DNA from: Candidatus Kapaibacterium sp.
GTDB lineage: Bacteria; Verrucomicrobiota; Verrucomicrobiia; Limisphaerales; UBA9464
NCBI GenBank assembly: GCA_044339945.1
Contig: JBIIUN010000003.1
Location: forward strand, 1-39,900
Direction of reading: 5' to 3'
Length of the DNA stretch: 39,900 nucleotides
Positions 14,835-39,627 of this stretch are shown piece by piece. The translations under genes were made by a program, and so were the position numbers. The notes below the pieces were generated by a model. The model was not told where the DNA came from, searched no databases, and saw only the letters and a program-made list of their open reading frames with translations. Numbering within the stretch: the first letter of the stretch is position 1; each line of letters starts with the position of its first letter.

Positions 14835-15569
14835 GTGAACTCAACTCAGCCAGCAACCGCCCCGGCGCAGGACGGCTTCGGTTTTCCCGAGACTGCGTGG
14901 AGCACGATCCTGCGGGCCCGGCAGAATTCCGCGGACGAACGCTTCGCCGCCGTGCAACGGCTATGTGAGCGTTACGAGCCAGCCATCCGCCGGAGCTTCC
15001 AGAAGACCGCTGGGCCGGAAATGGACGTGGATGAACTGGTCCAAGGCTTCTTCACCGAGAAGTTTTTGCGCCCACAGTTTCTGGCCAATTTGGAACGGGA
15101 CGGCGGACGTTTCCGCGACTTCATCCGGCAATGCCTGCGCAACTACCAGCGCACGGCGTGGCGGCGTTCGGTCCGCCACAGCCACCATGAAGTCATCGGG
15201 GCGGAGGCGACCGAACCAACTTCGGAAGCGCCCGGTCCTGACGTTGCGCTGGACCGGGAATGGGCGCGGCAGATTTTGGAACTGGCCCGCGCCCGGCTGC
15301 GGTCCGAAGCGGAGGCGGGCGGTTTTCTTGAACTGTGTTCCCATCTCGAAGCCCAACTGGACGGGGCTACTGACCTGCCCGGTCAGGCCGAATTGGGGCA
15401 GCGTCTGGGCAAGTCGCCCAACGCCGTGGCAGTCGCCCTTCACCGGTTGCGCGAACGCTACGGCTGGCTGCTGCACGATGAAATCCGCCAGACAGTGGCC
15501 GATCCCACCCGCTGGCGAGAGGAACGCGACCACCTGCTTGCGATCCTCAATTCGGTTGGAACGCCATGA
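14835..15569 (+). CDS. ECF RNA polymerase sigma factor, kinase-associated type
   Basis: N-terminal F.xT.WS extension (FPETAWST). Region 2 DVDELVQGFF ... GRFRDFI, then DREWA, and region 4 HTH AELGQRLGKSPNAVAVALHRLRERY. Stop overlaps the kinase start (ATGA). Confidence 0.88.
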   Translation: MNSTQPATAPAQDGFGFPETAWSTILRARQNSADERFAAVQRLCERYEPAIRRSFQKTAGPEMDVDELVQGFFTEKFLRPQFLANLERDGGRFRDFIRQCLRNYQRTAWRRSVRHSHHEVIGAEATEPTSEAPGPDVALDREWARQILELARARLRSEAEAGGFLELCSHLEAQLDGATDLPGQAELGQRLGKSPNAVAVALHRLRERYGWLLHDEIRQTVADPTRWREERDHLLAILNSVGTP

Positions 15570-17863
15570 CCTTCGAGGAGTTGGCCCAGGCGCGGGAGGG
15601 CAGTCCGCTCGGGGCGTTGCCGCTTTCGGCACCATTGCCCGAGGAATTCCGCCTGGTTGGTGAGGACTATGTGCTGCTCGAACGGTTGGGCGAAGGCGGT
15701 ATGGGGGAAGTCTGGTGGGCGCGGCAACTGAGCACCGGGCGGGAGGTGGCTGTGAAGCTCCTACGGCGCGGACATTCGGATGCGCGTTTCGCGCAAGAGG
15801 TGGCGGCCCTGGCCAAACTGGAGCATCCCGGAATCGTGAAACTGTTCCAGGCCGGGCAGCACGAAGGTCGCCCGTTCCTGGTGTTGGAACTGATTGCGGG
15901 GCCAACCGTGGCACAGTTGCTCCAAGCCGGTCCGCTGGAGCCGCGCATGGCGGCCCAGGCGGTAAAGGAAGCCGCCGAAGCCCTCGCCGCGGGCCACTCC
16001 CAAGGACTCATTCACCGGGATCTCAAACCTTCAAACCTGCTCCGCGATGCGGCGGGCCGGGTGCGGGTGACCGACTTCGGCCTGGCCAAGGACCTGACGG
16101 CAGGGCGCGACTTGACCCTGACGGGCGAACAGTTGGGCACGCCCGCCTACATGGCCCCGGAACAGGTGGATTCTCGTCGCGGTGTCGTGGGGTCCGCCGC
16201 GGATGTTTACGGGCTGGGTGCGACCCTGTTTCACACGCTCACTGGGCGGCCGCCTTTCGACGGTGCGACCACGGCGGAGATTCTTCACCATGTGATGACC
16301 CGGGAACCCGACTGGCATACCGGTTGGGAGCGCGTGCATCGTGACCTGCGAACGATTTGCCAGCGGGCCATGCACCGGGAACCCGGCCGCCGTTACCCCG
16401 GCGCTGCCGAACTCGCGGCGGAACTCGGCCGTTTCCTCGCCGGCGAACCGATTCACGCCCGGCCGATGTCCCTGGCCGAACGCGCGTGGCGCACCGCCCG
16501 GAAACCTTGGCCCGTGGCCGTCGCGGCCGCGTCGGTGCTGGGCAGTTTGCTCGCGGCCCTTTTGTTGCCGGTGTTGAACCGGAGCCAGACCCGGGCGTTG
16601 GTTTCGGGGTGGCCGCGGGCCAACCCGACCGCGCTTCATGTCCTCAACACTCCCAGCCGGGCGGGCTCGGGCCGATTTGTGTCGTTCTCAGATGTGAAGG
16701 GCTTGATGGCCATTGGCGGTTCGGAACGCCGGGTGCGAATTGCAGCCCTTGATCCGTGGCGTCCGTTGACTGGCAGCCTTCTGCTCTCGAATCGGGTCAG
16801 CTTCCACGTCTTCCAGCCCGGTGAGCCCATTCTGCTGACCGTCGAGGAATCCGGGCGCTGGAAAATCGCCCTCGTTGATCCCATCTATCGCGAAGGCATC
16901 AGCGACCAAATGAGCACCAACGTCACCCGGGTCGCCTACAGCCGCGAGGGCCATCACTGGGCGCTGGGCTCCGCGGCCGGCGAGGTGGATGTGCGGGCCT
17001 TCACCGAGCGTCAATTCCGCCGGCCGTTCCAGACCCGACATGACGGGGCGGTCACTGCCCTTCAGTTTGACGAGACCGCCAGTCGGCTGCTGACGGCCTC
17101 AGCCGACCGCACGGTCCGACTCTGGGATCTCGCGACTCAACAGCCATTGCAGACTTGGAGCGCCGACGCGCGCTTTGTGGTCGCTGGTTTCGCGGCCGGC
17201 GATTCGCTGGTGTATGCGGCCCACGTCCGAAGTCGCAGGAGTTCCGTCACCCGCCTGTTTCGGACTGCCGACGGTTCCTCGGTGGCGACCAATCATTTCT
17301 CGGGTGAACTGACCGGGCTTCAGTTGAGCCCGGACGGCTCCCGACTGATCGCCTTGTCCAGTGAGCGCTGGGCCGAAATCTGGGATGTTCGAGATCTGAC
17401 CGTCATCGCCAAGACCAGCGAGCATCCCGAACCACTCACGACCGCTTCAGTCAGTGCCGACGGCTTGCGCCTGTTGACCGTGGATGCCAGCGGCAGCGCC
17501 CGGCTCTGGGACGCCCACACCGGCGAGCCGCTAAGCGACTTCTGGCGTGGGCCGGCTGGTATCCGGCACGCCGCCTTTGCCCCCGACGGAATCCGCATTG
17601 GCTCCGGCGATGTCGGCCCCACCGGCACCCTTTGGGACGCGAGTTGTCCCCTGCCGGTCGGTTGGGATCGGGAAGCTTTGCTCCGCGCCCTGTTGCGCGA
17701 CGGGCGCCTTCCCTCCTTGCGGCGGGCGGCCTGGCTCGCCCCGGAAAATGCCGACGTGCTGAACCGGCTCGCGACTGCCACGGCGGTCGATGAACCCCAG
17801 CCCCGGGGCCAGCCGGAAGCGGATTTTCTCCGCCAGCGTGCGGCGCGGTTGTCCCCTCGATGA
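15566..17863 (+). CDS. Hanks-type Ser/Thr protein kinase - TM - WD40 repeats
   Basis: GEGGMGEV, VAVK, HRDLKPSN, DFG, GTPAYMAPEQ, DVYGLG. TM segment VAVAAASVLGSLLAALLL. WD repeats LLTASADRTVRLWD and GSARLWD. Confidence 0.93.
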   Translation: MTFEELAQAREGSPLGALPLSAPLPEEFRLVGEDYVLLERLGEGGMGEVWWARQLSTGREVAVKLLRRGHSDARFAQEVAALAKLEHPGIVKLFQAGQHEGRPFLVLELIAGPTVAQLLQAGPLEPRMAAQAVKEAAEALAAGHSQGLIHRDLKPSNLLRDAAGRVRVTDFGLAKDLTAGRDLTLTGEQLGTPAYMAPEQVDSRRGVVGSAADVYGLGATLFHTLTGRPPFDGATTAEILHHVMTREPDWHTGWERVHRDLRTICQRAMHREPGRRYPGAAELAAELGRFLAGEPIHARPMSLAERAWRTARKPWPVAVAAASVLGSLLAALLLPVLNRSQTRALVSGWPRANPTALHVLNTPSRAGSGRFVSFSDVKGLMAIGGSERRVRIAALDPWRPLTGSLLLSNRVSFHVFQPGEPILLTVEESGRWKIALVDPIYREGISDQMSTNVTRVAYSREGHHWALGSAAGEVDVRAFTERQFRRPFQTRHDGAVTALQFDETASRLLTASADRTVRLWDLATQQPLQTWSADARFVVAGFAAGDSLVYAAHVRSRRSSVTRLFRTADGSSVATNHFSGELTGLQLSPDGSRLIALSSERWAEIWDVRDLTVIAKTSEHPEPLTTASVSADGLRLLTVDASGSARLWDAHTGEPLSDFWRGPAGIRHAAFAPDGIRIGSGDVGPTGTLWDASCPLPVGWDREALLRALLRDGRLPSLRRAAWLAPENADVLNRLATATAVDEPQPRGQPEADFLRQRAARLSPR

Positions 17864-17956: not shown

Positions 17957-18220
17957 GCCGCGAAGCCGCCTGACCCAAACCACCGGACCCAGCCTCCGCG
18001 CCTGAGCCCGCGCGAAGCGGAGGTCGCCGCGTGGCTGGGTGAGGACGATACCTACGCCCAGATCGCCGCGCGGCTCGGGTTGAAACACGACACCGTGCGC
18101 GGACACGCGCGGGCCATTTTTGCCAAGCTCGGCGTGCGCACCCGTCCGGCGGCCGTCGCCCGGCTGCTGGGCCAAGGCATTGGGGCTACGCAAAAGGGGA
18201 GGATTGACTGCCAGTGTTAG
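17954..18220 (+). CDS. Stand-alone LuxR/GerE-type helix-turn-helix regulator
   Basis: LSPREAEVAAWL...TYAQIAARLGLKHDTVRGHARAIFAKLGVRTR; no receiver or ligand-binding domain. Confidence 0.82.
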   Translation: MAAKPPDPNHRTQPPRLSPREAEVAAWLGEDDTYAQIAARLGLKHDTVRGHARAIFAKLGVRTRPAAVARLLGQGIGATQKGRIDCQC

Positions 18221-18290
18221 TATCCGTGTGACTTCTATTCATGCCCCTTTCCTTCGATCCCAGTCTGGTTCCGGCAACCCCTGCACTTTC

Positions 18291-21200
18291 ATGAGAAACC
18301 GCAGCCCCAGTCTGTTCTTTAACCGCTTGGACTGGATGGGATGTTTTCTGGCGAGCTTGGCCCTCATTGGATGCCTTACCACCCAGGCCGCCGACTTGGT
18401 TATTCGTGACATCCAGGTGCGGCCGGACCAGCCGGTTCAAATCCGGGTGCCGGCCAGCTTGGACGCCTACTACGTGCTCTATCGGGGTGAGCAGGTTCAG
18501 CAAATCATCCTGCCCCGGGACATGCGGCTCGGCGCCGGCGCTGAAGTGACCCTGACGGACCCGGTTCCCCGACCCGATACGGCCTTTTACCGCATTGAGC
18601 AGGTGCCCATCGCCACGCCGCGCGACACGGACGGCGACGGCATGGATGACGTCTTTGAACTGCGGCACCCCACGGCCTGCAAACCATTGGTTGCCGATGC
18701 GAGTCTGGATCCCGACGGGGACGGTAAGACCAACCGGGAGGAATACCTGCTGGGCACCGACCCCGGGACGCCCAACGTTCCTCCGGCCGTCCGGCTGGTG
18801 GCACCCAACGATCTGGCCGTGCTCTTTTTGCCCGGACCATTCGACCTTGTCGCGGAAGCCTCGGACGCCGAGGGACCGCTTTCCTCGGTGGACTTTCTGG
18901 CCGGCGACATCCTCCTCGCGACGCGGACCAACGCTCCCTTCGCCTTCTCCTGGACCAACGCGCCCGTGGGCACCAATCGGCTCACCGCCCGGGCCACCGA
19001 TCAATTCGGCGCCCGCGCCACCTCAAGCCCGGTCACCGTCCGAATCCGGTTTCCCAATGCGCTCCCCAACGTGGCGATCACCGCTCCGGAAACCAACTCG
19101 CTCCACGCCTTGCCGGTCGCCATCGAGGTGATGGTCGCGGCGAGCGACTCCGAAGGCCCGGTGGAATCGGTCCGGATCTTTTTCAACCGGACCAACCTGC
19201 TGGCCAGCCTCACCAACGTCCCCTTCGCCTTTGGCTGGACCAATGCGCCGTTGGGCACCAACGAACTGACCGCGGTCGCCCTTGACTCCGACGGGGCCAG
19301 CGTCACCTCGGCGCCGGTGAGCATCCGGGTGATCGTCGCCAACCGGGCTCCGGAATTCGCCGCGATCCCGGACGAGGCGGTGGACGAGGAGAAGCCGCTG
19401 AGCCTGAGCCTGAGCGCGACCGATGCCGACGAGCCGCGGCAGACGCTGACCTATGGTCTGGTCAGCGGTCCCGCGGGCTTGAGCGTGACCGCAGGCGGCG
19501 CCCTGAGCTGGACACCCACCGAGGCCCAGGGCCCGACGAACGTCGCGGTGCGGGTATCGGTGACGGACGGACTGTTGAGCGTGACCAATCAGTTCACGGT
19601 CGCCGTGCGGGAGGTGAACGTGGCGCCCGTGCTGGCGGCGATCCCGGACCGCGCGGTGGACGAACTCACGCCGCTGGCCTTGGCCCTGAACGCAACGGAC
19701 GCCGACGAGCCGCGGCAGATGCTGACCTATGGCCTGGTCAGCGGTCCCGAGGGCGTCGCCGTGACGTCTGGCGGCGCCCTGAGCTGGATGCCCACCGAGG
19801 CCCAGGGCCCGACGAACGTCGCGGTGCGGGTGTCGGTGACGGACGGACTGCTGAGCGTGACCAACCGGTTCAACGTGGCGGTGCGCGAAGTCAATGAGCT
19901 GCCAACATTCTTGGGACTGACCAATCAATCCATTCCCGAGCTGTCATCCTTCGCCCTGCCGCTGGCCGCCACTGACCCAGACCTACCAACCCAAAACCTT
20001 TCGGTCGCCTGGGTCGCTGGACCGGCTGGGTCGGGCGTGACCAACGGGGTTTTCGCTTGGCTCCCGGACGAACGCCAGGGGCCCTCCACCAACGAGGTGC
20101 GGGTCGTCGTCACTGACGGCCAACGGACCGTTACGAATGCCTTCACCGTGATCGTCACGGAGGTGAACACCGCGCCGGTGTTGGCGCCCGTTGCCAACCG
20201 GACCATTGACCAACTGACCCCATTGGACCTGACGTTGACCGCCACCGACGCCGACGAACCGGTCCAAGCCCTGACCTTCAGCTTGGTGAACGGGCCCGCC
20301 GACCTGACTGTGACTCCAGCCGGGCGGGTGTCCTGGGCTCCTCGACCGGCCCAGTTCCCCAGCACCAATGTCGTCGCTGTGCGTGTCGGCGACGGGCAGG
20401 ACTTCGCCACGAATACGTTCACGGTTTTCGCCCTGCCGGTGGACATACCGCCCACGGTGACCCTGACCGAACCCCTCGGCAGCGTCGCCTATGCGGCGCC
20501 GGGTTATGTGAAGCTCCATGCGGAGGCCCGCAGCACCAACGCCGCCATCGCCCGGGTCGAGTTTCTGGCGGGCACCAACGTCATCGGCACCGTCACGGCG
20601 CCACCCTACCGCTTCAACTGGGATGCCGTGCCGGCCGGGGAATACGTCATCACTGCCCGCGCGGTGGATACCCAGGGTGTCGCCGCCACCAATGGCGTGC
20701 CCACGCTCGTCAAGGTCACGCCGCTGGACACCGAACCGCTGACCACCTTCGCCAGCTCCCCGACGGCGGGCGAAACCGGCGTGGCGGTGACCCGCGAGAC
20801 CGTGCTCCGGTTTACCTGCCCGCTGCGCGACGACGCCACTGTGAGCCTCGACCGGTTTAATGCCGTGGCCAACGGACGCCGCGTGCTGTCCCGCATCGAG
20901 CTTTCCACCGACCGGCGCACCGCCACGCTGTTCTATCTGGAGAACCTGCCCGCCAGCAGCCGTGTGCGGGTGACCTTCAATGGCACGGGAATTTTCGACT
21001 GCCTGGGCCGCGCGGTGGATGCCGACGGCGACGGCCAGCCCGGCGGCATCGCGGAATTCGACTTCGACACGCTGGCGACCGTGGCGGTGGCCCGGACGGC
21101 GATCAGCGGGCGGGTGTTTGCCTCCGAACCGGTGTCGGGTGCGGGCACGACCAACTTCCTCAACCGCCCGCTCCAGGGCGTCACCATCACGGTGGACGGC

Positions 21201-24200
21201 GCGGAGGAAACCCAGCGCACCACCACCGATGCCCAGGGCAACTTCCGCCTCGAACCCTGTCCCTCCGGCCGTTTCTTCGTGCATGTGGACGGGCGCACGG
21301 CCGAGGGCAGCGAGTGGCCCAGCGGGGCCTACTACCCGTTCGTGGGCAAGGCGTGGGACGCGGAGGCGGGCCGCGCGGACAACCTGGCCAACGGCACCGG
21401 TGAAATCTTCCTGCCGCGGGTGCCGGGCGCCGCGCTGCAAGCGGTGAGCGCCACGGAAGACACCCGGATCACCTTTGCCCCGGAGGCGCTGATCGCGAAC
21501 CCGGACCTGGCGGGTGTCTCCATCACGGTGCCGGCGAACTCGCTACTCAGCGAGAACGGCGCGCGGGGTGGCCGCGTGGGCATTGCGGCGGTGCCGCCGG
21601 ACCGGCTGCCCGAACCGCTGCCGCCGGGACTGAACTTCCCCCTCGTCATCACGGTGCAGACGGACGGGCCGCAGAATTTTGACCGGCCCGTCCCAGTGAG
21701 GTTTCCGAATCTGCCGGACGCAACAACGGGGTTGGTGTTGCAGCCGGGCGAAACCACCACCTTGTGGAGTTTTGTGCATGATACCGGCCGCTGGGAGCCG
21801 CAGGGAACCATGACGGTATCCGCAGATGGACGGTTTCTCGATTCTGACCCCGGCAGCGGGATACGACAGCCGGGGTGGCATGGCTGGTTTGATTGTCCAA
21901 CTTGTTGTCCTGCTCCTCCTCCAATGACATTTGATGATTGGTGGGACTTGTCAGACACAGCAATTGGATGCGCCAAAGACTTTGCAGGCATCAAAAAAGG
22001 TCTCGCTTGCCTCGTGGAGATGCTTGGGTTGACCAAATCGATAGCCAACCTGATTCGCACTCTAATCGAAGCGCTCGATAAGAAAGATGCGAGCGCTTGT
22101 GATTGGGCCAGAGCTTCGATCGGTGGAATCGAACGACTCAAAGACATACTACAAGTAGCAGTGAAATGTGCAGAGAGCTACAGTCCTGTCTCGAAAGCTG
22201 AAGCGGCTATATCATGCTTGACGCGGCTTTTAGATGCAGGTGCTAAGCGATGCGGGAAATTCACTCAAGAAGATGGGACGCCTTGTGAGCCGACAATATT
22301 TAGGTTCCTTGTCTGTAAGGGACTCACGATAGCAAGGACCTATTTCGCTGCCGCAAACATATTTGTTAAGCAAGGCGAGGAGTTGATTAAAGCTATCGGG
22401 GATTTTTTAATCGGAGAGCTGGAACGGTCATTGAACAATCTATTAAACAGGATATGTCCAACCGCCGGGAAAATTGGTAGGGAAGGCGCTTTGCATTCAT
22501 TATCTGAGGATGAGGTCAGTCAGATTACTGAAGAGTTGCGAAACCATCTGAAAAAACTGGATCGGCTGAATAATGCAACCGAAGCCGTGCTGCTATCCGC
22601 GGAAATCCTAGATAAGCAATTTGATGAGTTAGTTGAAGATCATGAAAGCGGCAGAAGATATCGTGGAACTGGTGAATTTGTTTTCTGGGAAGCCAGATTC
22701 GCAGGTAGTGTGCTCAGGGGAGCTGGCCAACTTTCACAAATCCGTGTTCCAGTAATCCCACGCAACATCGCGTGGTCATGGGCCGAGTATTACCCAGGTG
22801 CAAACCTAATTGGAGAGTCTTCTGGAGTTATTCCTGCTGTCGGTCAGACAACATTATGGGCAAGAACGTTTGAATCAGCTGCGGCGTTGGCAGATAGCGA
22901 TGGAGATGGTCTTGCCGATAGAGTTGAATCTGTGATTGGCACGGACAGCAATGTGTCGGACACCGACCGCGACGGCATCCCCGACGGCGAAGAGATCCGC
23001 CAAGGCACCGACCCGCTCGACGGCCGGGTGGCCCAGACCGGCGTCATCAACTCGCTGCCCGTTACCGGCACGGCGGTGGACGTGAGCGCGGCCAACGACG
23101 TGGTGGCGGTCGCGGCGGCCGAGGGTGGTGTCACGCTGTTCAACACGCTCAATCCCGCCCGCCCGCTGCGCGTGGGGCAGGTGGACACGCCGGGCAACTG
23201 CGTGGCCGTGGCCAGCCTTGGCACCCGCGTGGTGGCGGCTGACGGCGACGCGGGCGTGGCCCTCATTGATTTCTCCGATCCGGCCAACCCGCAGCTCGTC
23301 CGGCAGGTCGGGCCGGGCGCGTTGGGCGGGGGCAGCATCCAGGCCCTCGCCGCGGCAGCGGACATTGCGTTCGCCGGCAGCACCTCGGGCAAGGTGTCCA
23401 TGCTCGATCTCGCCACCGGCGCGGTGTTCCAGACGCTGGACCTCGGCGGCAAGGTGGAGGACCTCGCCATCGAGGGCCTGACGCTCTACGCCTACGCGGG
23501 CGACCGCCTGCATGTGCTGCCCTTCGGCAAGGGCCTCATGGAGCGCGGCGGTTCGGTCGTCAGTCCCGCTCCCGCCGGGATCAACACCGCCAACGGCCGT
23601 GGCCGCCTGTTTGTGGGCGGGGAGGTCGCCTACGTGACCCACACCAAAGGTTTCAACACCTTCTCGGTGAGCGACCCGGCCAACCCGCGCCTGCTGGCCG
23701 CCGGTGACACCCGGGCACCTTTCGAGCAGTTCGGGTGGAAGCACACGGTGGCCAACGGTTCGGGGCGGGTGATTGCCGCCTTCAGCCCCAACCAAGCTTT
23801 CGACGGCCCCCACAACGTCGGCCTTTTCGACGCCCGCGACCTGAACAACGGGAACATGAACGACAAGTTCCTCACGCAATTCGAGACGCCCGGCATCGCC
23901 CGCGCCGTGACGCTTTACAACGGCCTCGCCTACGTGGCCGACCAGGGCGCCGGGATGCAGGTGCTCAACTACCTGCCGCCGGACACCGGGACCAACGGAC
24001 CGACGGGAACGCTGTTGGTTTCGGTAGCGCAGGACGATCCGGTTGTCGCACGGAGCCTGACTGTGGCCAATCCGGGTTTCGAAGAGGGAGTGCCGACCGT
24101 CTGGCCGGGGTATGTCCTGGACAATGGACCGATCCCTGGGTGGGAGGCCAGCGATGCGGCAGGGATCAATCCGGGCACCGGCTTTAGCCCATTTGCCGAC

Positions 24201-25961
24201 AACGGACTGATTCCAGAAGGAGCCCACGCCGCGTTCATTCAGGATGCCTATGTTCCCGGATCAACCAGCGGGTGGGTGAAGCAGGAGGTTTCCGGATTCG
24301 AGGTGGGCAAACTGTATCAGGTTCGGTTCCGGGAGAACGCCCGCAACTGTTGCCGGGGATCCCTTCCGGTGCTGGAAGTCAAAATGGGAGGCACGACCGT
24401 GGTTGAGGCCCATCGGGTTGCCCGTGTCGGTGGCGTTGACCCATACGCCACGATGAATTCGCGGTTGTTCACGGCCACCGCGGAGAAGATGAAACTGGAG
24501 TTCCTGAAATCGGGGGACCCCGGAACCGATACGAGCGTCCTTCTGGATGACGTCCAGGTGCTCGAAATCCAGACGGTTCCGGAAAACCAGATCACCGTCG
24601 GTAGTTTGGTTCTGCTCCAAGCACCGGTGCAGGACGACGTGCAGGTGCGGCAGGTGGAGTTCTTCGTGAACAACCAGCGCATCGCCATCGACGGCAACTT
24701 CCCGTTCGAGACGGTCTATCGCGTGCCGACCAACACCCTCGGCACGCCGCTGGTCTTCGCACTCCGCGCCTCCGACATGGGCGGAAACAGCCTGTTGCTG
24801 ACCAACAGTCCGGTGACGGCCCTTCCTGACTCCCAAGGGCCGGCCATCGCCATCAATGCCCCGGTCGAGGGCAGCGATTCCTATCTGGGCACCACACTGG
24901 CGGTGGAACTCACGCTGTTCGACAACGTGGACGGACCCAATGTCGCTGCCATCGGGTTTGAGATCGACGGCCAGCGGGCTGATTTCGAGCGCCTGACCCG
25001 GACGAGCTTCACGGTCAAGACGCCCACTGCCGTAGGCCGACATACCTTGGTCGCCATCGGTCGCGATTTCGCGGGCAACGAGGGCCGTTCAGCGGCGGTC
25101 AATTACTGGCGGCTCCCTTCGGCTCCGGACGATGACTTCGACCAAGACGGCCTCTCTAACCATCAGGAGATCCGCCTTGGCACCGACCCAACCAAAGCCG
25201 ACACGGATGGCGATGGTTTTGCCGACGGTCGCGAAGTCGAGGAGGAAACGGACCCGCTGGATGCACGAAACCGGCCCAGCTTCGTCTTCCTAGCCCAGCC
25301 ACCCGTGGAAATTGCCTTGGCCGGTGAGCGTGGACTGAACGGAACCGGAATGACCATTGCCGGGCCGCTGCTGGAAATCTTCTCACCCGGAACTAATTCC
25401 GTCCCAGGTGGTGTGGTCACGGCAGAACCGCTGGTCGAGTTGGTGCTGCCGGGCACCAATTCTGCCGTCACGGGGGTGATGCTGGCTCAACCGCCGGTGG
25501 AAATCGTCTTGGCGGATGCGCATGGGCTGAACGGAACCGGGGTCACCATTGCCGGGCCGCTGATTGAAATCGTCTCCCCGGGAACCAACTCCGCGCCGCG
25601 GGGCGTGGCCATCGCCCAACCGCTGGTCGAGTTGGTGCTGCCGGGCAACGACTCCTCCGCCCGAGGAGTGACGCTGGCTCAACCTCCGATTGAAATCGGG
25701 CTGCCTGAGGACGGAGCCAACGCCTCATTCCCCATATTCGCCCAGCCCGAGATTGAAATGTGGTTCCCCGGCCTCGGCGGATCGGCTGATTTTCCGCTCC
25801 GCCTCGCGGAACCCCTCCTGGAAGTTGATTTCGGTTCTGGCGAACCCAGTTCCGGGGCCAAGCCCACTACGGAAGTCTTACCTTACGGCAAAACGGACCG
25901 CATGACGGGGCCCGTGTTACCCTCACTCTCAAAGCAACGACAGAATCCCAATCCACTATGA
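18291..25961 (+). CDS. Giant secreted/surface protein (~2556 aa): FYR-type domain, TSP3-like Ca-binding motifs, Ig-like and cadherin-like repeats, low-GC Cys-rich cassette, LVIVD-like beta-propeller, CBM/DUF642-like domain, C-terminal repeat array
   Basis: ATG 18291 with signal peptide (...LASLALIGCLTTQA|ADL). Three DxDGDG...E...GTDP clusters. Ig units (A.ASD.EG....V.F) and cadherin-like units (L.ATDADEP.Q.LTY.L..GP). Propeller blades such as QVDTPG..V.V and AYVAD..AG.QV. Confidence 0.88.
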   Translation: MRNRSPSLFFNRLDWMGCFLASLALIGCLTTQAADLVIRDIQVRPDQPVQIRVPASLDAYYVLYRGEQVQQIILPRDMRLGAGAEVTLTDPVPRPDTAFYRIEQVPIATPRDTDGDGMDDVFELRHPTACKPLVADASLDPDGDGKTNREEYLLGTDPGTPNVPPAVRLVAPNDLAVLFLPGPFDLVAEASDAEGPLSSVDFLAGDILLATRTNAPFAFSWTNAPVGTNRLTARATDQFGARATSSPVTVRIRFPNALPNVAITAPETNSLHALPVAIEVMVAASDSEGPVESVRIFFNRTNLLASLTNVPFAFGWTNAPLGTNELTAVALDSDGASVTSAPVSIRVIVANRAPEFAAIPDEAVDEEKPLSLSLSATDADEPRQTLTYGLVSGPAGLSVTAGGALSWTPTEAQGPTNVAVRVSVTDGLLSVTNQFTVAVREVNVAPVLAAIPDRAVDELTPLALALNATDADEPRQMLTYGLVSGPEGVAVTSGGALSWMPTEAQGPTNVAVRVSVTDGLLSVTNRFNVAVREVNELPTFLGLTNQSIPELSSFALPLAATDPDLPTQNLSVAWVAGPAGSGVTNGVFAWLPDERQGPSTNEVRVVVTDGQRTVTNAFTVIVTEVNTAPVLAPVANRTIDQLTPLDLTLTATDADEPVQALTFSLVNGPADLTVTPAGRVSWAPRPAQFPSTNVVAVRVGDGQDFATNTFTVFALPVDIPPTVTLTEPLGSVAYAAPGYVKLHAEARSTNAAIARVEFLAGTNVIGTVTAPPYRFNWDAVPAGEYVITARAVDTQGVAATNGVPTLVKVTPLDTEPLTTFASSPTAGETGVAVTRETVLRFTCPLRDDATVSLDRFNAVANGRRVLSRIELSTDRRTATLFYLENLPASSRVRVTFNGTGIFDCLGRAVDADGDGQPGGIAEFDFDTLATVAVARTAISGRVFASEPVSGAGTTNFLNRPLQGVTITVDGAEETQRTTTDAQGNFRLEPCPSGRFFVHVDGRTAEGSEWPSGAYYPFVGKAWDAEAGRADNLANGTGEIFLPRVPGAALQAVSATEDTRITFAPEALIANPDLAGVSITVPANSLLSENGARGGRVGIAAVPPDRLPEPLPPGLNFPLVITVQTDGPQNFDRPVPVRFPNLPDATTGLVLQPGETTTLWSFVHDTGRWEPQGTMTVSADGRFLDSDPGSGIRQPGWHGWFDCPTCCPAPPPMTFDDWWDLSDTAIGCAKDFAGIKKGLACLVEMLGLTKSIANLIRTLIEALDKKDASACDWARASIGGIERLKDILQVAVKCAESYSPVSKAEAAISCLTRLLDAGAKRCGKFTQEDGTPCEPTIFRFLVCKGLTIARTYFAAANIFVKQGEELIKAIGDFLIGELERSLNNLLNRICPTAGKIGREGALHSLSEDEVSQITEELRNHLKKLDRLNNATEAVLLSAEILDKQFDELVEDHESGRRYRGTGEFVFWEARFAGSVLRGAGQLSQIRVPVIPRNIAWSWAEYYPGANLIGESSGVIPAVGQTTLWARTFESAAALADSDGDGLADRVESVIGTDSNVSDTDRDGIPDGEEIRQGTDPLDGRVAQTGVINSLPVTGTAVDVSAANDVVAVAAAEGGVTLFNTLNPARPLRVGQVDTPGNCVAVASLGTRVVAADGDAGVALIDFSDPANPQLVRQVGPGALGGGSIQALAAAADIAFAGSTSGKVSMLDLATGAVFQTLDLGGKVEDLAIEGLTLYAYAGDRLHVLPFGKGLMERGGSVVSPAPAGINTANGRGRLFVGGEVAYVTHTKGFNTFSVSDPANPRLLAAGDTRAPFEQFGWKHTVANGSGRVIAAFSPNQAFDGPHNVGLFDARDLNNGNMNDKFLTQFETPGIARAVTLYNGLAYVADQGAGMQVLNYLPPDTGTNGPTGTLLVSVAQDDPVVARSLTVANPGFEEGVPTVWPGYVLDNGPIPGWEASDAAGINPGTGFSPFADNGLIPEGAHAAFIQDAYVPGSTSGWVKQEVSGFEVGKLYQVRFRENARNCCRGSLPVLEVKMGGTTVVEAHRVARVGGVDPYATMNSRLFTATAEKMKLEFLKSGDPGTDTSVLLDDVQVLEIQTVPENQITVGSLVLLQAPVQDDVQVRQVEFFVNNQRIAIDGNFPFETVYRVPTNTLGTPLVFALRASDMGGNSLLLTNSPVTALPDSQGPAIAINAPVEGSDSYLGTTLAVELTLFDNVDGPNVAAIGFEIDGQRADFERLTRTSFTVKTPTAVGRHTLVAIGRDFAGNEGRSAAVNYWRLPSAPDDDFDQDGLSNHQEIRLGTDPTKADTDGDGFADGREVEEETDPLDARNRPSFVFLAQPPVEIALAGERGLNGTGMTIAGPLLEIFSPGTNSVPGGVVTAEPLVELVLPGTNSAVTGVMLAQPPVEIVLADAHGLNGTGVTIAGPLIEIVSPGTNSAPRGVAIAQPLVELVLPGNDSSARGVTLAQPPIEIGLPEDGANASFPIFAQPEIEMWFPGLGGSADFPLRLAEPLLEVDFGSGEPSSGAKPTTEVLPYGKTDRMTGPVLPSLSKQRQNPNPL
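19362..19896 (+). repeat. Near-identical tandem duplication (276-bp period) of a cadherin-like domain
   Basis: GCGATCCCGGAC starts at both 19362 and 19638. Long identical stretches, e.g. CCCACCGAGGCCCAGGGCCCGACGAACGTCGCGGTGCGGGT, occur in both copies. Confidence 0.92.
21885..22950 (+). other. In-frame low-GC cassette inside the giant gene
   Basis: Sampled lines are 40-48% GC (lines 21901 and 22381) versus about 73% upstream (line 21301). It begins right after PGWHG (21870-21884) and ends at a DSDGDG motif; it encodes 12 Cys. Confidence 0.88.
25293..25835 (+). repeat. Nine ~21-aa repeats A[Q/G/E]P[P/L/E][V/L/I]E arranged as three 192-bp super-repeats
   Basis: AQPP-initiated units begin at 25293, 25485 and 25677 (192-bp spacing), each containing three sub-repeats. 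Confidence 0.85.
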
Positions 25962-27091
25962 ACACATCTCGGCTCATGCAGGGCCTCGCGCTGTTCCTCG
26001 CATTCACCGCGGCGGCCCGGGCACAAACCGTCGACTCGGGCAGCACCGGTTCCTTGGGCGCCCTCGTGGTTACCAACGACACGTTCGTCCAACTCCCACC
26101 CGATGGAAAACTCAACTACACCACGGTGACCGTTGAAGCAGGGGCGACACTCCGTTTTGGCAAGAACCCGCTGAACACGCCGGTTTACCTCCTGGCCACC
26201 AGTGATGTCGTCATTAGGGGAGTCATCGATGTCTCCGGGAGCTACGGCGGCAACAACCTCGGGCAAGGTGGACCCGGAGGTTTCAATGGTGGGGCTCCGG
26301 GGATCAGTTCTGACCCGGGCGACGGCGAAGGCCCCGGCGGGGGGCAGGGCGGGGTGTGGGGGACGGACAAATATCCGGGCAATGGTTCGCATGGCTCTAC
26401 CGGCGTGCGCTCACTCGGCCCGAAATACGGCAATCGGGAGCTGCAACCTTTGATCGGCGGCTCGGGCGGAGGTGGCCAAGGCGCGTCGGGGGGAAGCGGG
26501 GGCGGCGGAGCCATCCTGATCGCCTCGAATACCAAGATTGAGGTGTCGGGCGGCGGAATCTGGGCGATAGGCGGACAATCGTTTGATTGGGCCGGCAACC
26601 GCGGAGGAGGCGGCGCGGGCGGCGCGGTGCGACTGGTTGCGCCGGCAATCGGCGGGGCTGGTGGCTCGTCCGAGGTGAACTGCAGTGGCGCATTGCATGC
26701 TGGCACCGGGCGCATTCGGATAGATGGCACTTACCTCGGCGGAATCAGCTTCAATGGTTTAGCCCAAGTGGGGCAGAACTTCGTGGTGATTCCCGCCGCG
26801 CAGCCTTCTCTTCGGTTCATTGAAGCGGCGGGACAGGCTATCCCGGTGGACGCGGGCAACACCATCCGCCTGAACCTTTCCCGAACGGCCTCGACCAATC
26901 AGACGGTCAAATTGCGCCTGGCGGGCTTCACCGGCTTTGTGCCGGTGACCGTCGCCGTGCTGCCGGAAGAGGCTGCATCCAGCCGGGTCGTGACGGAAAT
27001 CAACATGGCAGGCAACGCAACGGCGGAGACCACGGTCAACGTGACTTTGACCCCTGGGATGGTGAACCGGATCCAAGCTTGGACGCAGTAG
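25958..27091 (+). CDS. Secreted glycine-rich protein with a C-terminal beta-sandwich-like domain
   Basis: ATGA overlap with the giant gene. Signal peptide ending AARA|Q, then SGSTG..GAL, LPPDG and NTPVYLLAT. Gly runs GGSGGGG, GGGGGAILIAS and GGGGAGGAVRL. Confidence 0.85.
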   Translation: MNTSRLMQGLALFLAFTAAARAQTVDSGSTGSLGALVVTNDTFVQLPPDGKLNYTTVTVEAGATLRFGKNPLNTPVYLLATSDVVIRGVIDVSGSYGGNNLGQGGPGGFNGGAPGISSDPGDGEGPGGGQGGVWGTDKYPGNGSHGSTGVRSLGPKYGNRELQPLIGGSGGGGQGASGGSGGGGAILIASNTKIEVSGGGIWAIGGQSFDWAGNRGGGGAGGAVRLVAPAIGGAGGSSEVNCSGALHAGTGRIRIDGTYLGGISFNGLAQVGQNFVVIPAAQPSLRFIEAAGQAIPVDAGNTIRLNLSRTASTNQTVKLRLAGFTGFVPVTVAVLPEEAASSRVVTEINMAGNATAETTVNVTLTPGMVNRIQAWTQ

Positions 27092-27256
27092 CGTCGGCTG
27101 CCGAGACTTGGCTTCGAGCGTGAGGTGCTGGCCCCCTTACCGCGCGAAATTGTGTCATCGCCACTTGGACCAACAACAACGACGTCCCACCCGGCCTGTT
27201 CGTCGCCCGAATCCGTGCCAAGGCCCGGTGGCGCTTCACCGATCGGGAAAGGGACT

Positions 27257-29827
27257 ATGACGGGACACATCATGAAGACGTGGACGTGCAGTGCGCTGAT
27301 GCTCCTGGCAGGCTTGCCGGGAGTAGGTGTTTCCGGATTGGCGGCAAAGACGGAGATTGCCGCGCTGTTTGAGGAGTCCGGAACCGGCTTAGCCGTGGGG
27401 AAGGCTTTGCGCCCTGCCACCAAGCGTTCCCGGTTGGCGAAGATCAATTGGTCCGCGCTCCCGGGCCATGGGGCGGGGCTGTCCGCCCGCCGGGTCTTCC
27501 GGTTGAACCTGTTTCCGGGAGAGGAATTCGAGGTGTTGGTTTCAAAATTCGAGGTTCAGGGTGAACGGTTTGCGCTGGTCGGCAGCGTCGAGGGACAACC
27601 GGGTTCCCTGGTCACCCTGGCCGGCAACCCCCGCGCCATCGCGGGGGACATCTTTCTGCCCGGACGTGATCCGTTTCTCATTGAGTATGCCGGCGAAGGA
27701 ACCCATCGCATCGTCGAATCGGATCCGAGCCTGTTTCCGCCTTGCCAGGACCCGGGACCACCGGCAGCGGGCGCGGCGGGCCGGGCCGGGGCCAGCCAAC
27801 CGGCAGATCCTCCGGCCGTCCCCACTTTGGGGCCAGTGAGACGGGCGGGCGCCGAGCCGGAGCCACCGGCAATCATCGAGATTTTCGTCTCGTATACGCC
27901 CAAGGCATTGAAAGGGGCGGGCGGTCAGGACGGGATGGATGCGTTGATCGACGAATGTATCCTGGTGACGAATCAGGGCTTTGAGAACAGCCACATCAAC
28001 GCGCGCCTGCACCTCGCGGGCAGTTGGCTGACCGGGTATCAGGAATCCGGCAACTCCGCCACCGATCTGAACAACCTGCTCTACGGCGAACGGAATGGCT
28101 ACACGGGGAAGAGCGATGACCAGGGCGCCTACGCAGCCGCGGTCGGTCCGTTGCTGGGCATCGACATTACCTGCACCATCGTGGATTCCCTCTCGGACGG
28201 CACGGCTGGGCGGGCGGGGATCCTGACTTCTGGGGAGGTGGGGCGGGGCAAGGTCGGCTTGAGCGTCGTCTCCCGAACGTGGGCGACGCACGCGTTTCCC
28301 CACGAAATCGGCCACAATCTCGGTTGCAATCACGATGCGGCGAATGCCACCGGTCCCGGATTCTTTGCGTATTCAAAGGGCTGGAATTTTCAGGTCAACG
28401 GCCGGACCTATGGCACCATAATGTCCTACCCAGGCGACCGCATCCCCTACTTCTCGGCTCCCGAAATCTCGTTTCTCGGCGTGCCCACCGGGTTGGCCGG
28501 AGTCGCGGACAACGCGGCAACCGTCCGCGCCACGGCCCCGCTTGTGGCGGCGTCGTATTCGCCGGTCGAACTGCCCGCGTCGCACTACACCTTCACCACG
28601 CTCGCGGGCTCACCCGGTGAGCTCGGGTGGCGCGATGGCGTCGGAAAGTTCGCGCGGTTCGTGCAGCCTCGCGGCGTGGCGGTGGACCGCGACGGCAATG
28701 TCTTGGTGGCTGATTTGATGGGCCACACCCTGCGCAAAATCACGCCCGACGGAGCGGTCTCCACCCTTGCGGGTTTGGCGGGCTCGCGGGGCAGTGCCGA
28801 CGGCCTTGGAAAACAGGCCCGCTTCGACCAACCGGCCAGGATCGCCGTGGACTCACGCGGCCGGATCTACGTGGCGGATAGTTTCAACCGGACGATCCGC
28901 AGAGTCTCACCGGAGGGAGAGGTGACCACCTTGGCCGGTATGGCCGGGGAGCGGGGCCAGGTCGACGGAATTGGGGCCGCGGCGCGGTTTGGAGGCCCCG
29001 GGGGCCTGGCCGTTGACAATTCCGACAGCCTGATCGTTGCGGACGTAGTCAATCATTCCATCCGCAAGGTTTCGGCGGACGGGAAAGTGACGACCCTTGC
29101 AGGTGGGACGGAGGGGTATGCGGACGGAATCGGCAGGGAGGCGAAGTTTTCCTCCCCGGATGACCTCGCGGTGGACCCGGCGGGAAATGTCTTTGTCGCG
29201 GACGTCGAAAACATGTGCATCCGGAAAGTCACGCCGGCCGGCGTGGTCACGACGGTCATCGGACTGCCGGGCCAGCGTGGATTTGTTGATAGTGACAGAT
29301 CCCATGCCCGCTTCTCCTGGATCGGAGGCATTCTGCTGGAACCGGGTGGCGGCATCTTGGTGGCTGACTACGGGAACAACGTCCTGCGATCGATTTCGCC
29401 GGATGGATCGGTAACGACCATCGCCGGGGGGATTTTAGGAAGAGAAGAGAAAGTCGGCTGGGCCGGCAGTGCTGACGGCCCGGGGCCGCTCGCCCGGTTC
29501 TTCGAACCTCACGGGCTGGCGAGGGATTCCGCGGGCAACATTTACGTGGCGGATACCTCCAACAGGACCATCCGCAAGGGCAGCTTCAGCCCAAAGGGCC
29601 TGCCGGGGCTGCTCAGCCTGCAACTGGCCTCGCCGCCTTCAACGGACACGGGCTTTGGATTCACGAGCACCGTGATCTCCGGCCTGCGCTACCGGGTCCA
29701 AAGGACGACGGGCGCGGACGGTTGGACCGAGATAACGAACCTCCGTCCGTCAACCACGACGCTCAGTTTCGCGGACACGGTCCACACCAACAGTGGGGCA
29801 CACTTTTATCGGCTGGTCACGCCGTGA
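27257..29827 (+). CDS. Secreted reprolysin-like (M12B-type metzincin) zinc metalloprotease with NHL repeats and a C-terminal FYR-type domain
   Basis: Start ATG 27257 or 27272 with signal peptide. Zinc motif HEIGHNLGCNH (28301-28333) and Met-turn TIMSY. About 6 NHL repeats G..DG.G..ARF..P.G.AVD. Ends HFYRLVTP. Confidence 0.9.
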   Translation: MTGHIMKTWTCSALMLLAGLPGVGVSGLAAKTEIAALFEESGTGLAVGKALRPATKRSRLAKINWSALPGHGAGLSARRVFRLNLFPGEEFEVLVSKFEVQGERFALVGSVEGQPGSLVTLAGNPRAIAGDIFLPGRDPFLIEYAGEGTHRIVESDPSLFPPCQDPGPPAAGAAGRAGASQPADPPAVPTLGPVRRAGAEPEPPAIIEIFVSYTPKALKGAGGQDGMDALIDECILVTNQGFENSHINARLHLAGSWLTGYQESGNSATDLNNLLYGERNGYTGKSDDQGAYAAAVGPLLGIDITCTIVDSLSDGTAGRAGILTSGEVGRGKVGLSVVSRTWATHAFPHEIGHNLGCNHDAANATGPGFFAYSKGWNFQVNGRTYGTIMSYPGDRIPYFSAPEISFLGVPTGLAGVADNAATVRATAPLVAASYSPVELPASHYTFTTLAGSPGELGWRDGVGKFARFVQPRGVAVDRDGNVLVADLMGHTLRKITPDGAVSTLAGLAGSRGSADGLGKQARFDQPARIAVDSRGRIYVADSFNRTIRRVSPEGEVTTLAGMAGERGQVDGIGAAARFGGPGGLAVDNSDSLIVADVVNHSIRKVSADGKVTTLAGGTEGYADGIGREAKFSSPDDLAVDPAGNVFVADVENMCIRKVTPAGVVTTVIGLPGQRGFVDSDRSHARFSWIGGILLEPGGGILVADYGNNVLRSISPDGSVTTIAGGILGREEKVGWAGSADGPGPLARFFEPHGLARDSAGNIYVADTSNRTIRKGSFSPKGLPGLLSLQLASPPSTDTGFGFTSTVISGLRYRVQRTTGADGWTEITNLRPSTTTLSFADTVHTNSGAHFYRLVTP

Positions 29828-38424: not shown

Positions 38425-38599
38425 GGCCCTTGAATGCAAGTGCTAACCTGATCTGCGATTCGAATTTTCCGAATGGAGACCGGCCCGGTCTCGGTTCGAG
38501 TTCGACTCTCTGGAAGCTTTGGCGGCTTGCCGCAGACTGATTGACCCGCTGCCGACGTGAGGCCGTGGTTACGGGTGAAGAATTATTCCAAAAAACGTA

Positions 38600-38627
38600 T
38601 TGCACCGTGGGTTGGAGTCGGTAAGTT
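38600..38627 (+). promoter_or_regulatory. Candidate str-operon promoter
   Basis: TTGCAC-N16-TAAGTT preceded by an A-tract, about 46 nt upstream of rpsL. Confidence 0.4.
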
Positions 38628-38673
38628 CTGCGCTCCCGTTACTCGCAAACGGCAACTTGATTCCATTGGTTCC

Positions 38674-39066
38674 ATGCCGACAATTAATCAGCTGATCCGC
38701 AAAGGGCGGAACAAGGTTACCTACAAGAGCAAGGCCCCGGCCTTGCAGTCTTCCCCGTTTCGCCGCGGTGTTTGCCTTCAGGTGATGACCCGCACACCGA
38801 AGAAGCCGAACTCTGCAATGCGAAAGGTTGCCAAGGTTCGTCTAACCAACGGATTTGAGGTCATTGCTTACATTCCAGATGAAGGTCACAACCTTCAGGA
38901 GCACTCAATTGTCTTGGTGCGTGGTGGTCGTGTGAAGGATTTGCCGGGTGTTCGTTACCACATTGTCCGTGGCACGTTGGACTGTGCGGGTGTTGAAAAA
39001 CGCCGCGTCAGTCGGTCAAAATATGGTGTGAAACGTCCCAAAGCTGCCAAGACTGCCGCGAAATAG
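38674..39066 (+). CDS. rpsL: 30S ribosomal protein S12
   Basis: ATG 38674 gives [12 protein letters not shown]; [33 protein letters not shown]. Confidence 0.99.
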
Positions 39067-39101
39067 GCCTTAACAATTTCATCTCGTAATTAATCGTTCA
39101 T

Positions 39102-39575
39102 ATGGCTCGTCGTCGCCAAGCGGAAAAACGGACCACTCAACCTGATCCCCGGTTCAACAGCCCTCTCGTTGGGCGGTTGATCAACATAGTTATGCGCAGT
39201 GGAAAGAAGACCATTGCTCAGAAGATTGTTTACGGGGCAATGGATGTCCTTGCTGAAAAAAATCCCGGCGTAAACACATTGGATATCCTTCAGAGGTCAA
39301 TTGATAACGCGAAGCCTCGGATCGAAACCAAGGCTAGGCGCGTTGGTGGTGCGACGTATCAGGTGCCCATGGAAATTCCTGCAGAGCGCCAAGTTGCTCT
39401 GGCGATGCGGTGGTTGACAACATACGCCGATGCTCGGAAAGGAATCCCGATGCGCGAGGCATTGGCTGCGGAGCTTATGGACGCATTCATGGGGCAGGGT
39501 AATGCGATTCGCAAGCGTGATGATGTTCACAAAATGGCTCAGGCCAACAAGGCGTTCGCCCACTTCCGCTGGTAG
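39102..39575 (+). CDS. rpsG: 30S ribosomal protein S7
   Basis: MARRRQA, GKK..A..IVY, RRVGGATYQVP, ends AQANKAFAHFRW. Confidence 0.99.
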   Translation: MARRRQAEKRTTQPDPRFNSPLVGRLINIVMRSGKKTIAQKIVYGAMDVLAEKNPGVNTLDILQRSIDNAKPRIETKARRVGGATYQVPMEIPAERQVALAMRWLTTYADARKGIPMREALAAELMDAFMGQGNAIRKRDDVHKMAQANKAFAHFRW

Positions 39576-39598
39576 CACTCTGTATTGTAGCAACAAAC

Positions 39599-39627
39599 GC
39601 CCCGCGGCTTGTCCCGGGGCATTTTTC
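39599..39627 (+). terminator. Terminator/attenuator-like hairpin between rpsG and fusA
   Basis: GCCCCG-10 nt-CGGGGC followed by ATTTTT. Confidence 0.4.

Follow-up and report, generated by a model that had tools for sequence, protein, structure and literature searches.

The DNA stretch analysed here (the window: 39,900 nucleotides, positions 1 to 39,900 of contig JBIIUN010000003.1 in the Verrucomicrobiota assembly GCA_044339945.1) encodes a giant secreted protein whose gene is a compositional mosaic. Many paralogues of this gene exist, and together they make up a large Verrucomicrobiota family of giant, adhesin-like secreted proteins. These proteins share a common scaffold, in which a conserved N-terminal arm (N-arm) ending in the motif PGWHG is followed, usually after a Pro/Gly-rich linker, by one slot, a small beta-sandwich, calcium-type TSP3 repeats and an LVIVD propeller, the last two belonging to the conserved C-terminal arm (C-arm). 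The slot carries unrelated modules in different paralogues, of at least nine unalignable types. In the window copy it holds a Cys-rich module of the type designated T2, which lies within a tract of low GC content at third codon positions (GC3). Taking all results together, we consider it probable (about 65%) that the slot of this family is exchangeable and that the T2 segment of the window copy was imported from a family member of lower GC content.

A paralogous family with one slot for unrelated modules

The gene is a single open reading frame (ORF) of 2613 codons extending from 18120 to 25961 on the forward strand. In other assemblies the start is placed at Met58 (nt 18291), which gives a protein of 2556 aa, and the protein record P0022 (2556 aa; present on 24 contigs) is an exact match to residues 58-2613. 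The domain order begins with immunoglobulin-like (Ig-like) and cadherin-like repeats; next comes the conserved core that contains the module slot, and behind it lie Ig-like domains, then TSP3 repeats and finally C-terminal repeats. A Pfam scan of the whole protein returned Big_7, TSP3_bac, Big_9, Big_5, LVIVD and CarboxypepD_reg. The sole hydrophobic 19-residue segment with a mean of at least 1.7 in the Met58 form is found at residue 20, and the N terminus looks, judging from its sequence, like a Sec signal peptide. The make-up of the protein, with this signal peptide and the Ig-like, cadherin-like, TSP3 and propeller domains, is of the extracellular type. We presume that the protein is exported, with the T2 module in an oxidised state and accessible from outside the cell. 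The module corresponds to residues 1256-1590 of the 2613, with approximately 1020 residues of the protein downstream.

Residues 860-2010 were used to search 41 related genomes, which are not independent of each other. Arm matches were present in 15 of them, with up to 18 per genome. The initial annotation of this locus, which was made from the sequence alone, had placed the module between two conserved arms, and the paralogue alignments agree with this, as they stop at PGWHG and resume at DxDGDG. Most N-arm matches (55-72% identical) ended at query residue 395-397, which corresponds to PGWHG, and C-arm matches (28-50% identical) began at about query residue 730, which corresponds to ADSDGDG. 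The middle between the arms was mostly unmatched. The genome of the window itself contains five full cores (contigs C357, C206, C93, C617 and C545) and three fragments at contig ends. Pairing of the arms on the same contig gave 53 stretches, one of them without a C-arm; in 51 of the 52 pairs the arms were joined in frame, without stops, by 777-2736 nt, the exception being a joining stretch of 5828 nt with 3 stops. Among 49 paralogues, the N-arm ended with [QKE]PGWHG in 42 and with PGW in all 49, and the C-arm started with DxDxDG in 45.

Concerning the distribution of the family, the N-arm domain is encoded by 379 stretches in species-representative genomes. Of the 80 stretches that were retained, nearly all carry the label Verrucomicrobiota, Verrucomicrobiales, Limisphaerales or Pedosphaera. 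Several metagenome-assembled genomes from lakes that harbour family members (loci L117, L118, L128, L138 and L173) have record titles naming 'Akkermansia muciniphila', which looks like a labelling artefact in view of habitat and gene content. Searches of the full text of the literature, supplements not covered, found no description of this giant-protein family.

Module types were defined as BLAST groups from an all-against-all comparison of 51 middles, with the last 120 aa ignored and with single linkage. As a result, the middles fell into nine groups of 18, 16, 7, 4, 2, 1, 1, 1 and 1 members, the second group being heterogeneous. The slot contents include the predicted Cys-stapled four-helix bundle of T2, phospholipase A2 (PLA2), PKD arrays and several Cys-rich domains without a known family. 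When 40 non-T2 middles from relatives were examined with Pfam, 32 were without a family, 2 were PLA2, 3 were PKD arrays, and the rest were Ig-like or TSP3. The PLA2 scores were 41.5 bits for PF06951 (cut-off 34) and 33.3 and 35.6 bits for PF09056 (cut-off 29.4), and one PLA2 module aligned to PDB entry 4aup (E 0.0011) with the active-site motif C..HD.GY kept. A second sample comprised 75 modules, of which 68 were without a Pfam family and one more was PLA2-like, slightly below the cut-off. The PLA2 modules above the cut-off are located at L049:1159-2022 (G002:C120) and L051:1198-2028 (G041:C212), and the one below it at L183:2981-3856. The nearest N-arm to that of the window (72% identical) belongs to a paralogue, L011/L136 (G017:C324), whose protein terminates 105-110 aa past PGWHG; the Cys-rich tail has a GC3 of 0.35 against 0.58-0.60 upstream, and displays the layout of a classical C-terminal cassette.

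We also examined how module types are distributed over the arms. In all four paralogues of the window genome that have orthologues in other species of the genus, the module type was kept between species. On arm trees, which were quick searches on 300-aa pieces, the T2 label was unclustered for both arms (6 changes for 7 rows; equally low values in 140 and 131 of 500 shuffles), whereas two large module groups were clustered (0 to 1 of 500 shuffles). The two arm trees conflict for some genes; L074 grouped with L087 on the N-arm tree (support 98) and with L060 on the C-arm tree (support 96).

A full HMMER scan with the T2 module against 1.84 billion representative proteins (E <= 0.001) yielded 20 proteins, one of which was the module's own cluster. 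Sixteen of the 19 non-self matches were proteins of 1597-4998 aa with PGW at most 90 aa upstream of an alignable Cys-helical middle. In 14 of these 16, a TSP3 repeat was present 344-401 aa past PGW, the distance in the window being approximately 340 aa. The remaining three matches were two fragments and a seemingly spurious one. The 18 rows of a T2 alignment built from genome loci displayed 14-22% identity to the window module. Among the 75 further modules, the resulting profile matched 15 over the length of the bundle and another 24 in the terminal beta-sandwich only; a divergent counterpart of this beta-sandwich ends other module types too. The conserved pattern of the T2 beta-sandwich in the 18-row alignment is Y.L..G...RG...G...LP.L....Y.L..Y.P. 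In searches of further genomes with a T2 profile, T2 was found in 10 of 300 at the order level and in 0 of 400 at the phylum level, where scoring was restricted to 5 candidates in each genome. These results revealed that T2, with identities of 18-28%, is a recurrent domain of the family and not an orphan. The expectation in the initial annotation that the middle would be non-homologous between homologues was therefore borne out between most paralogues, with at least nine groups among 51 middles, but not within T2, where the 16 of 19 library matches can be aligned.

Composition and origin of the low-GC3 tract

The GC content in 300-nt windows was 0.69-0.73 at 21000-21750, 0.43-0.49 at 21900-22800 and 0.73-0.74 at 22950-23400. 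At the first, second and third codon positions, it was 0.67/0.55/0.85 in the N-arm, 0.54/0.47/0.42 in the module and 0.71/0.50/0.85 in the C-arm. The fall thus sits at the third codon position, and reflects codon usage rather than amino-acid make-up. When the GC3 of codons 1001-1900 was scanned by likelihood with two change points, the tract was placed at codons 1233-1606 (nt 21816-22937), with a log-likelihood gain of 113 and a GC3 of 0.417 within the tract against 0.882 outside. The frame is intact throughout, without stops or a frame break. An in-frame drop in GC content after PGWHG had been noted at 21870-22950 in the initial annotation, and the drop was confirmed with slightly wider borders.

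The positions of the borders were informative. Within 2 units of log likelihood, the left breakpoint ranged over codons 1215-1235 and the right one over codons 1604-1611. The left border lies about 20-23 codons before the end of PGWHG and the right border 16 codons inside the first TSP3 repeat, so that both breakpoints fall within arm-coding sequence. The arm residues on the left side (VSADGRF..SDPG.GIRQPGWHG) and the first TSP3 repeat on the right side are written with AT-ending codons. A search for target-site-like repeats at both junctions gave only short repeats at chance level.

Low GC content is rare in this genome, and the dip exceeds what chance would give. In the 4.94-Mb assembly (mean GC 0.659, standard deviation 0.032), 13 of 17,572 1-kb windows had a GC content of 0.50 or lower, and these derived from three loci, an rRNA operon, an exopolysaccharide-export locus and the tract in the giant gene. 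The exopolysaccharide-export locus, at about 2000-6000 of contig C439 (L102), is a cluster of exopolysaccharide chain-length/tyrosine-kinase, SLBB export and porin genes. As it is the only other protein-coding locus at or below 0.50, both low-GC coding islands of the genome are related to the cell surface. A second stretch of lowered GC content in the window was observed at 38250-39750 (0.52-0.53 in 1-kb windows).

An abrupt change in composition could result from an assembly or binning chimera, in which homologous genes of two organisms were joined at conserved motifs. In favour of this, the metagenome assembly is fragmented (631 contigs, 85% complete), copies of the multi-copy family break assemblies and leave fragments at contig ends, and the breakpoints do sit in conserved sequence. 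On the other hand, all sampled words of 21500-23300 were present in 20 lake-water runs. Single contigs covered 21000-23800 in runs X1, X12 and X20 and 21335-23800 in run X7, in each case crossing both junctions at an even word depth and without any difference. These four runs were separately assembled and date from 2020, 2023, 2024 and 2025, and at most one of them can be the source of the window. In addition, the exact module with both junctions was common to 6 distinct protein records of a 22-member cluster (lengths of 2400, 2464 and 2556 aa included). Although the check was carried out on contigs, a chimera is extremely improbable, and the contigs support the junctions as real.

Because both breakpoints are situated inside sequence coding for the conserved arms, homologous replacement by a lower-GC allele of the family is the most likely origin of the tract. 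A 1.1-kb segment with the T2 module would have been replaced in frame by homologous recombination (xenologous gene conversion), and the donor would have been an allele of a family member in a lower-GC bacterium. The putatively imported piece holds arm-type residues and a TSP3 repeat, indicating that the donor had the same architecture. A T2-bearing homologue in a uniformly low-GC genome was found in the same order (L094), with a GC3 of 0.44-0.45 along the whole gene. With respect to the foreign cassette proposed initially, the allele in the window is indeed compositionally foreign, but the T2 kind of module recurs in the family at the same place.

We then considered the possibility that the module is native and old, and that a local process lowered its GC content, for example relaxed codon selection, a mutation rate that is strongly raised or, in an exposed domain that evolves fast, selection for diversity. 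Slot modules are slightly below their arms in GC3 (median differences of -0.03 to -0.07 per type), T2 evolves much faster than the arms (28% mean column identity against 77% in the last 160 aa of the N-arm, 15 genes across the order), and no donor turned up. However, the change is abrupt at both ends, where the ranges given above span 21 and 8 codons, and selection on the module cannot account for the AT-ending codons of the conserved arm residues and the TSP3 repeat that the tract takes in. In most T2 modules, moreover, the GC3 equals that of their arms. Weaker dips in slot GC3, of -0.19 to -0.24, were present in 7 of 52 paralogues, and one other T2 gene, seen twice (L100 and L137), displayed a dip of -0.25 to -0.33. 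The deepest dip was that of the window copy (-0.44), with no other near; its GC3 of 0.42 is far outside all other paralogues, whose next differences are -0.33 and -0.25. A native origin of the composition therefore seems unlikely.

Several observations weigh against an import into an exchangeable slot. In an independent sample of 80 loci, only 3 dips reached -0.2, one of them over only 26 codons. No donor was found among the 1.84 billion representative proteins, where the best non-self identity was 24-33% over part of the module, and word-based searches of 5.8 billion clusters with the module found its own cluster only. The five same-genus genomes contained no close orthologue (end branches of 0.31 and 0.45), so the state before the import cannot be seen. 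The stability of module types between species, in 4 of the 4 cases with orthologues, implies that exchange is rare, and the scatter of T2 on the arm trees is equally explained by an ancestral T2 that was replaced many times. As for function, the searches of Pfam, NCBIfam, folds and PDB profiles detected no binding or catalytic signature in T2, and its role is proposed by analogy.

The T2 module and its candidate functions

The 335-aa stretch from PGWHG to ADSDGDG contains 12 Cys residues, as had been counted previously, at module positions 4, 7, 8, 29, 42, 72, 95, 111, 123, 134, 144 and 191. Five of these (C29, C111, C123, C134 and C144) are invariant in all 18 rows of the T2 alignment, and positions 42 and 95 are common to 4 of the 18. 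The five invariant residues fit a disulfide-bonded extracellular domain, in agreement with the proposal of such a domain in the initial annotation. AlphaFold2 with the 18-row alignment gave a medium-confidence prediction (mean predicted local distance difference test (pLDDT) 71.8) of four helices of about 50 residues each and a beta-sandwich. It superseded a single-sequence model (pLDDT 60) in which the beta part appeared as helices. The predicted helices comprise module residues 16-65, 71-123, 138-190 and 208-260, with a Cys-rich polar loop at 124-137; a helix-rich insert had been expected, and in this respect the prediction agrees. With an even number of helices, both ends of the bundle would lie together, so that the bundle would project between the N-arm and the beta-sandwich. 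A complex prediction of the last N-arm domain with the beta-sandwich and TSP3 scored 0.00 against a mark of 0.32, which is uninformative either way on whether the N-arm and beta-sandwich form a split domain.

Neither Pfam nor NCBIfam contained a family for the T2 module, a search of PDB sequences with the T2 profile gave nothing below E 0.01, and the module alone gave no lead in the ESM Atlas (best score 0.79). Foldseek with the T2 model against the PDB returned 0 matches at E <= 0.001. VIA-align matched designed bundles (Z 10-17), four-helix sensor domains, flagellar junction proteins and, lower down, pore formers (Z about 9). These matches are within the background that the tool states for helical bundles, and identify the model only as a generic bundle. 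An intein or mobile insert was also considered and rejected; Pfam detected no Hint family, and the same domain is found at the same place in homologues.

The initial annotation had suggested a membrane-active module, and we used the model to ask whether T2 could act on membranes as a pore-forming or lytic alpha-helical effector. The predicted helices are long and amphipathic, the top fold match is a designed membrane-lytic helical bundle (8gl3; Z 17.0, root-mean-square deviation 3.0, 186 residues aligned), and pore formers of the tripartite/ClyA type appear among the matches. NheA, AhlB, SmhA and Cry6Aa, however, gave Z values of 8.6-9.0, under those of the designed bundles, and Foldseek E-values were 0.035 or weaker; Z values in this range are stated by the tool to be common for helical bundles. 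No hydrophobic hairpin or segment was present in T2 (maximum 19-residue Kyte-Doolittle mean 1.42), the loop 124-137 is polar, and the five invariant Cys residues would staple the bundle against a large refolding. Taking into account these points together with the Foldseek result, we regard a membrane-active T2 as improbable.

The possibility that T2 belongs to a polymorphic toxin, delivered to competitors after release from the scaffold and neutralised by an immunity protein encoded nearby or elsewhere, could be examined through the gene neighbourhood. The start of the next ORF overlaps the stop of the giant gene. It encodes a conserved, Gly-rich protein of the secreted type, and no small module-specific ORF or immunity gene was found beside the giant gene, in accordance with the initial remark that none is adjacent. 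The downstream gene is itself multi-copy. It has 29 matches in the five same-genus genomes, 18 of which are located downstream of a C-arm match, on the same strand and at a distance of 1.2-2.4 kb; of the 5 matches in the window genome, 4 share a contig with a giant-gene core. The copies follow paralogues of several module types and are 36-48% identical to that of the window. A secreted-type, multi-copy protein encoded behind several module types is a conserved partner and unlike an immunity protein.

Several features would nevertheless suit a toxin. A conserved motif followed by unrelated modules is also seen in Rhs, CdiA and Maf, the classic effector enzyme PLA2 occupies the same slot in 2 of 40 paralogues with a third below the cut-off, the L011/L136 protein terminates soon after PGWHG in its low-GC3 Cys-rich tail, and the weak fold matches include the pore formers ClyA, Hbl, Nhe and Ahl. 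In contrast, the module is internal, about 1020 residues of protein follow it, no releasing peptidase domain was detected by Pfam, and T2 had no toxin family match in Pfam, NCBIfam or the PDB profile search. The fold matches do not rise above the helical-bundle background, and the module type does not change between species of the genus. On balance, a toxin with a cognate immunity protein seems unlikely. A polymorphism between strains, as implied by the toxin-like system first envisaged, was likewise not supported; the type was stable in the 4 of 4 orthologue cases, the contigs of the 4 runs displayed no variation, and the downstream gene is a conserved partner.

By analogy, T2 might rather be a displayed binding or recognition tip, to which we assign roughly even odds and which we favour over both a lytic effector and a toxin with immunity. 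As the slot can hold a membrane-attacking enzyme (PLA2), it is plausible that members of the family expose effectors or binding tips towards other cells or particles. A broader and more tentative view, which we consider possible but doubtful, is that of a payload-slot megaprotein system in Verrucomicrobiota that has not been described before, in which a multi-copy scaffold with its Gly-rich partner would have its single internal slot reloaded across species with effector or recognition modules, the window copy being a very recent reload across a difference in GC content. Reloading would proceed by homologous recombination in the conserved arm sequences across species boundaries, and the loads would be PLA2, Cys-stapled helical bundles and many domains without a known family. 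Such a system would be the equivalent, in free-living bacteria that are not pathogens, of the logic of MARTX and polymorphic toxins, directed against prey, algae, competitors or grazers.

Other features of the window and comparison with known systems

The features of the locus are collected in Table 1. The kinase gene directly upstream of the giant gene has relatives that adjoin family members at about five places in related genomes. A cassette of kinase, giant protein and partner was considered and found weak; only 1 of 25 kinase matches in the window genome was on a core contig, and this was the kinase of the present locus. Two further large proteins of the secreted type are encoded at 27125-29827 and 33355-38424, both on the forward strand. 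One of the two carries a CotH kinase together with four lamin-tail domains, and the other a reprolysin-like M12B metallopeptidase together with NHL repeats.

Table 1. Coordinates of the features discussed, in nucleotides of the window.
Feature	Position	Strand	Remarks
Ser/Thr protein kinase with WD40 propeller, directly upstream	15566..17863	+	Pfam; context
Giant secreted protein gene	18291..25961	+	2556 aa from Met58; open frame from 18120
Conserved N-arm, native composition	20697..21815	+	Big_5 Ig-like, CarboxypepD_reg (transthyretin-like), unnamed highly conserved domain (Pfam)
Low-GC3 tract, 1122 nt = 374 codons, putative import	21816..22937	+	Change-point scan, GC profile
PGWHG motif, last conserved N-arm residues	21870..21884	+	Paralogue alignments end here
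Middle module of type T2, 335 aa, 12 Cys, short Cys/Pro linker at start	21885..22889	+	
Predicted four-helix bundle of T2 module	21930..22664	+	AlphaFold2 with alignment
Predicted small beta-sandwich closing the slot	22677..22877	+	Strands at module residues 265-331
Two bacterial TSP3 (thrombospondin type 3-like, DxDxDG) repeats opening the C-arm	22890..23042	+	Pfam TSP3_bac, E 4.8e-13
C-arm with LVIVD-repeat beta-propeller region, native composition	23043..24149	+	Pfam LVIVD
Conserved partner gene, 377 aa, Gly-rich, signal-peptide-like N terminus	25958..27091	+	No known family; start overlaps giant-gene stop

Some further observations were made on the giant protein itself. The cluster members of 2400 and 2464 aa broke from an ungapped alignment to the 2556-aa form at residues 419 and 491, respectively, and the region concerned corresponds to the N-terminal Ig-like/cadherin-like (Big_9) repeats (about 19300-20700 of the window). 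Past the propeller (query residue about 1110 of 1151; residue about 1970 on), the paralogue alignments stop a second time. The GC content is about 0.60 at 24150-24750, and the region has a weak choice-of-anchor C match. There may be a second variable region downstream of the propeller. The C terminus (about 25300-25800) contains tandem repeats of about 35 aa with the form AQPPVEI.L...G..G..V.IAGPL.E., and a similar repeat pattern was seen in P0017. Concerning the N-arm, a language-model comparison gave a look-alike to Teneurin-type TTR/FN-plug domains (0.88; 178 shared features), which is a lead only. PF25020 and PF24329 were not among the Pfam matches to the N-arm at E <= 5, while CarboxypepD_reg-like families were, and a search of the N-arm against PDB sequences found nothing.

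If the reading given here is true, the family is large and almost wholly unannotated, with 379 stretches and with 32 of 40 and 68 of 75 slot modules without a Pfam family. The combination PGWHG ... DxDxDG provides a simple handle with which hundreds of unknown extracellular modules could be harvested from abundant freshwater and soil bacteria. The window copy would represent a clean natural case of horizontal replacement at the level of a domain within a gene, with both breakpoints at conserved motifs, and would bear on how modular surface proteins diversify. The PLA2 paralogues suggest that at least part of the family is offensive, which makes an ecological role testable, such as adhesion to algae, cyanobacteria or grazers, or an attack on them.

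The layout of the giant protein is less unusual than it had initially been taken to be, as internal exchangeable modules without immunity genes have precedents in MARTX toxins and RTX adhesins. MARTX toxins are very large secreted proteins in which conserved regions at the N and C termini flank a central set of modular effector domains; this repertoire changes by gene exchange between strains, and there is no immunity gene (PMC5218395, PMC5555677). The giant protein resembles them in its conserved arms, its exchangeable middle (9 BLAST groups) and the lack of an immunity gene, a likeness of layout only. It differs in that Pfam detected neither RTX or glycine-rich repeats nor a cysteine protease (CPD) domain, with no peptidase in Pfam or NCBIfam at E <= 0.01. 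Moreover, the slot holds one module and no array, in a scaffold of Ig-like, transthyretin-like, TSP3 and LVIVD domains. The host is a free-living lake Verrucomicrobium, and translocation into target cells is not indicated.

RTX adhesins (MpIBP, FrhA and an Aeromonas adhesin) are megaproteins with Ig-like extender repeats and calcium-binding elements, in which interchangeable ligand-binding modules emerging from 'split' domains are located internally, near the distal end (PMC12077191, PMC10523503). The internal interchangeable module of the giant protein is similar, and the even helix count predicted for T2 would suit a projecting insert. Unlike these adhesins, the giant protein has no RTX repeats or type 1 secretion signal (Pfam) and starts instead with a signal-peptide-like N terminus. 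The family is also multi-copy within a genome, with module types that differ between paralogues.

In polymorphic toxins such as Rhs, CdiA and MafB, a conserved pre-module motif precedes unrelated cassettes, sometimes of lower GC content, and recombination is the source of diversity (PMC3482391). The logic of a conserved motif leading to an unrelated cassette is shared by the giant protein. On the other hand, the module of the giant protein is internal, and no cognate immunity gene, Rhs/YD or FHA repeats or releasing peptidase was found. Its family appears to be diverse between paralogues and species rather than between strains; no module variation was seen in the contigs of the 4 lake runs, where rare variants would be dropped, or in the 6 protein records.

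The kin-recognition receptor TraA of myxobacteria is a surface protein with a variable recognition domain beside Cys-rich conserved parts, and is co-transcribed with a conserved partner. No toxin/immunity logic operates at the receptor, which carries a PA14-like variable domain and a MYXO-CTERM anchor, is single-copy and is polymorphic between strains. TraA and the giant protein are thus alike in combining a variable domain with a conserved partner, and differ in their domains and copy number.

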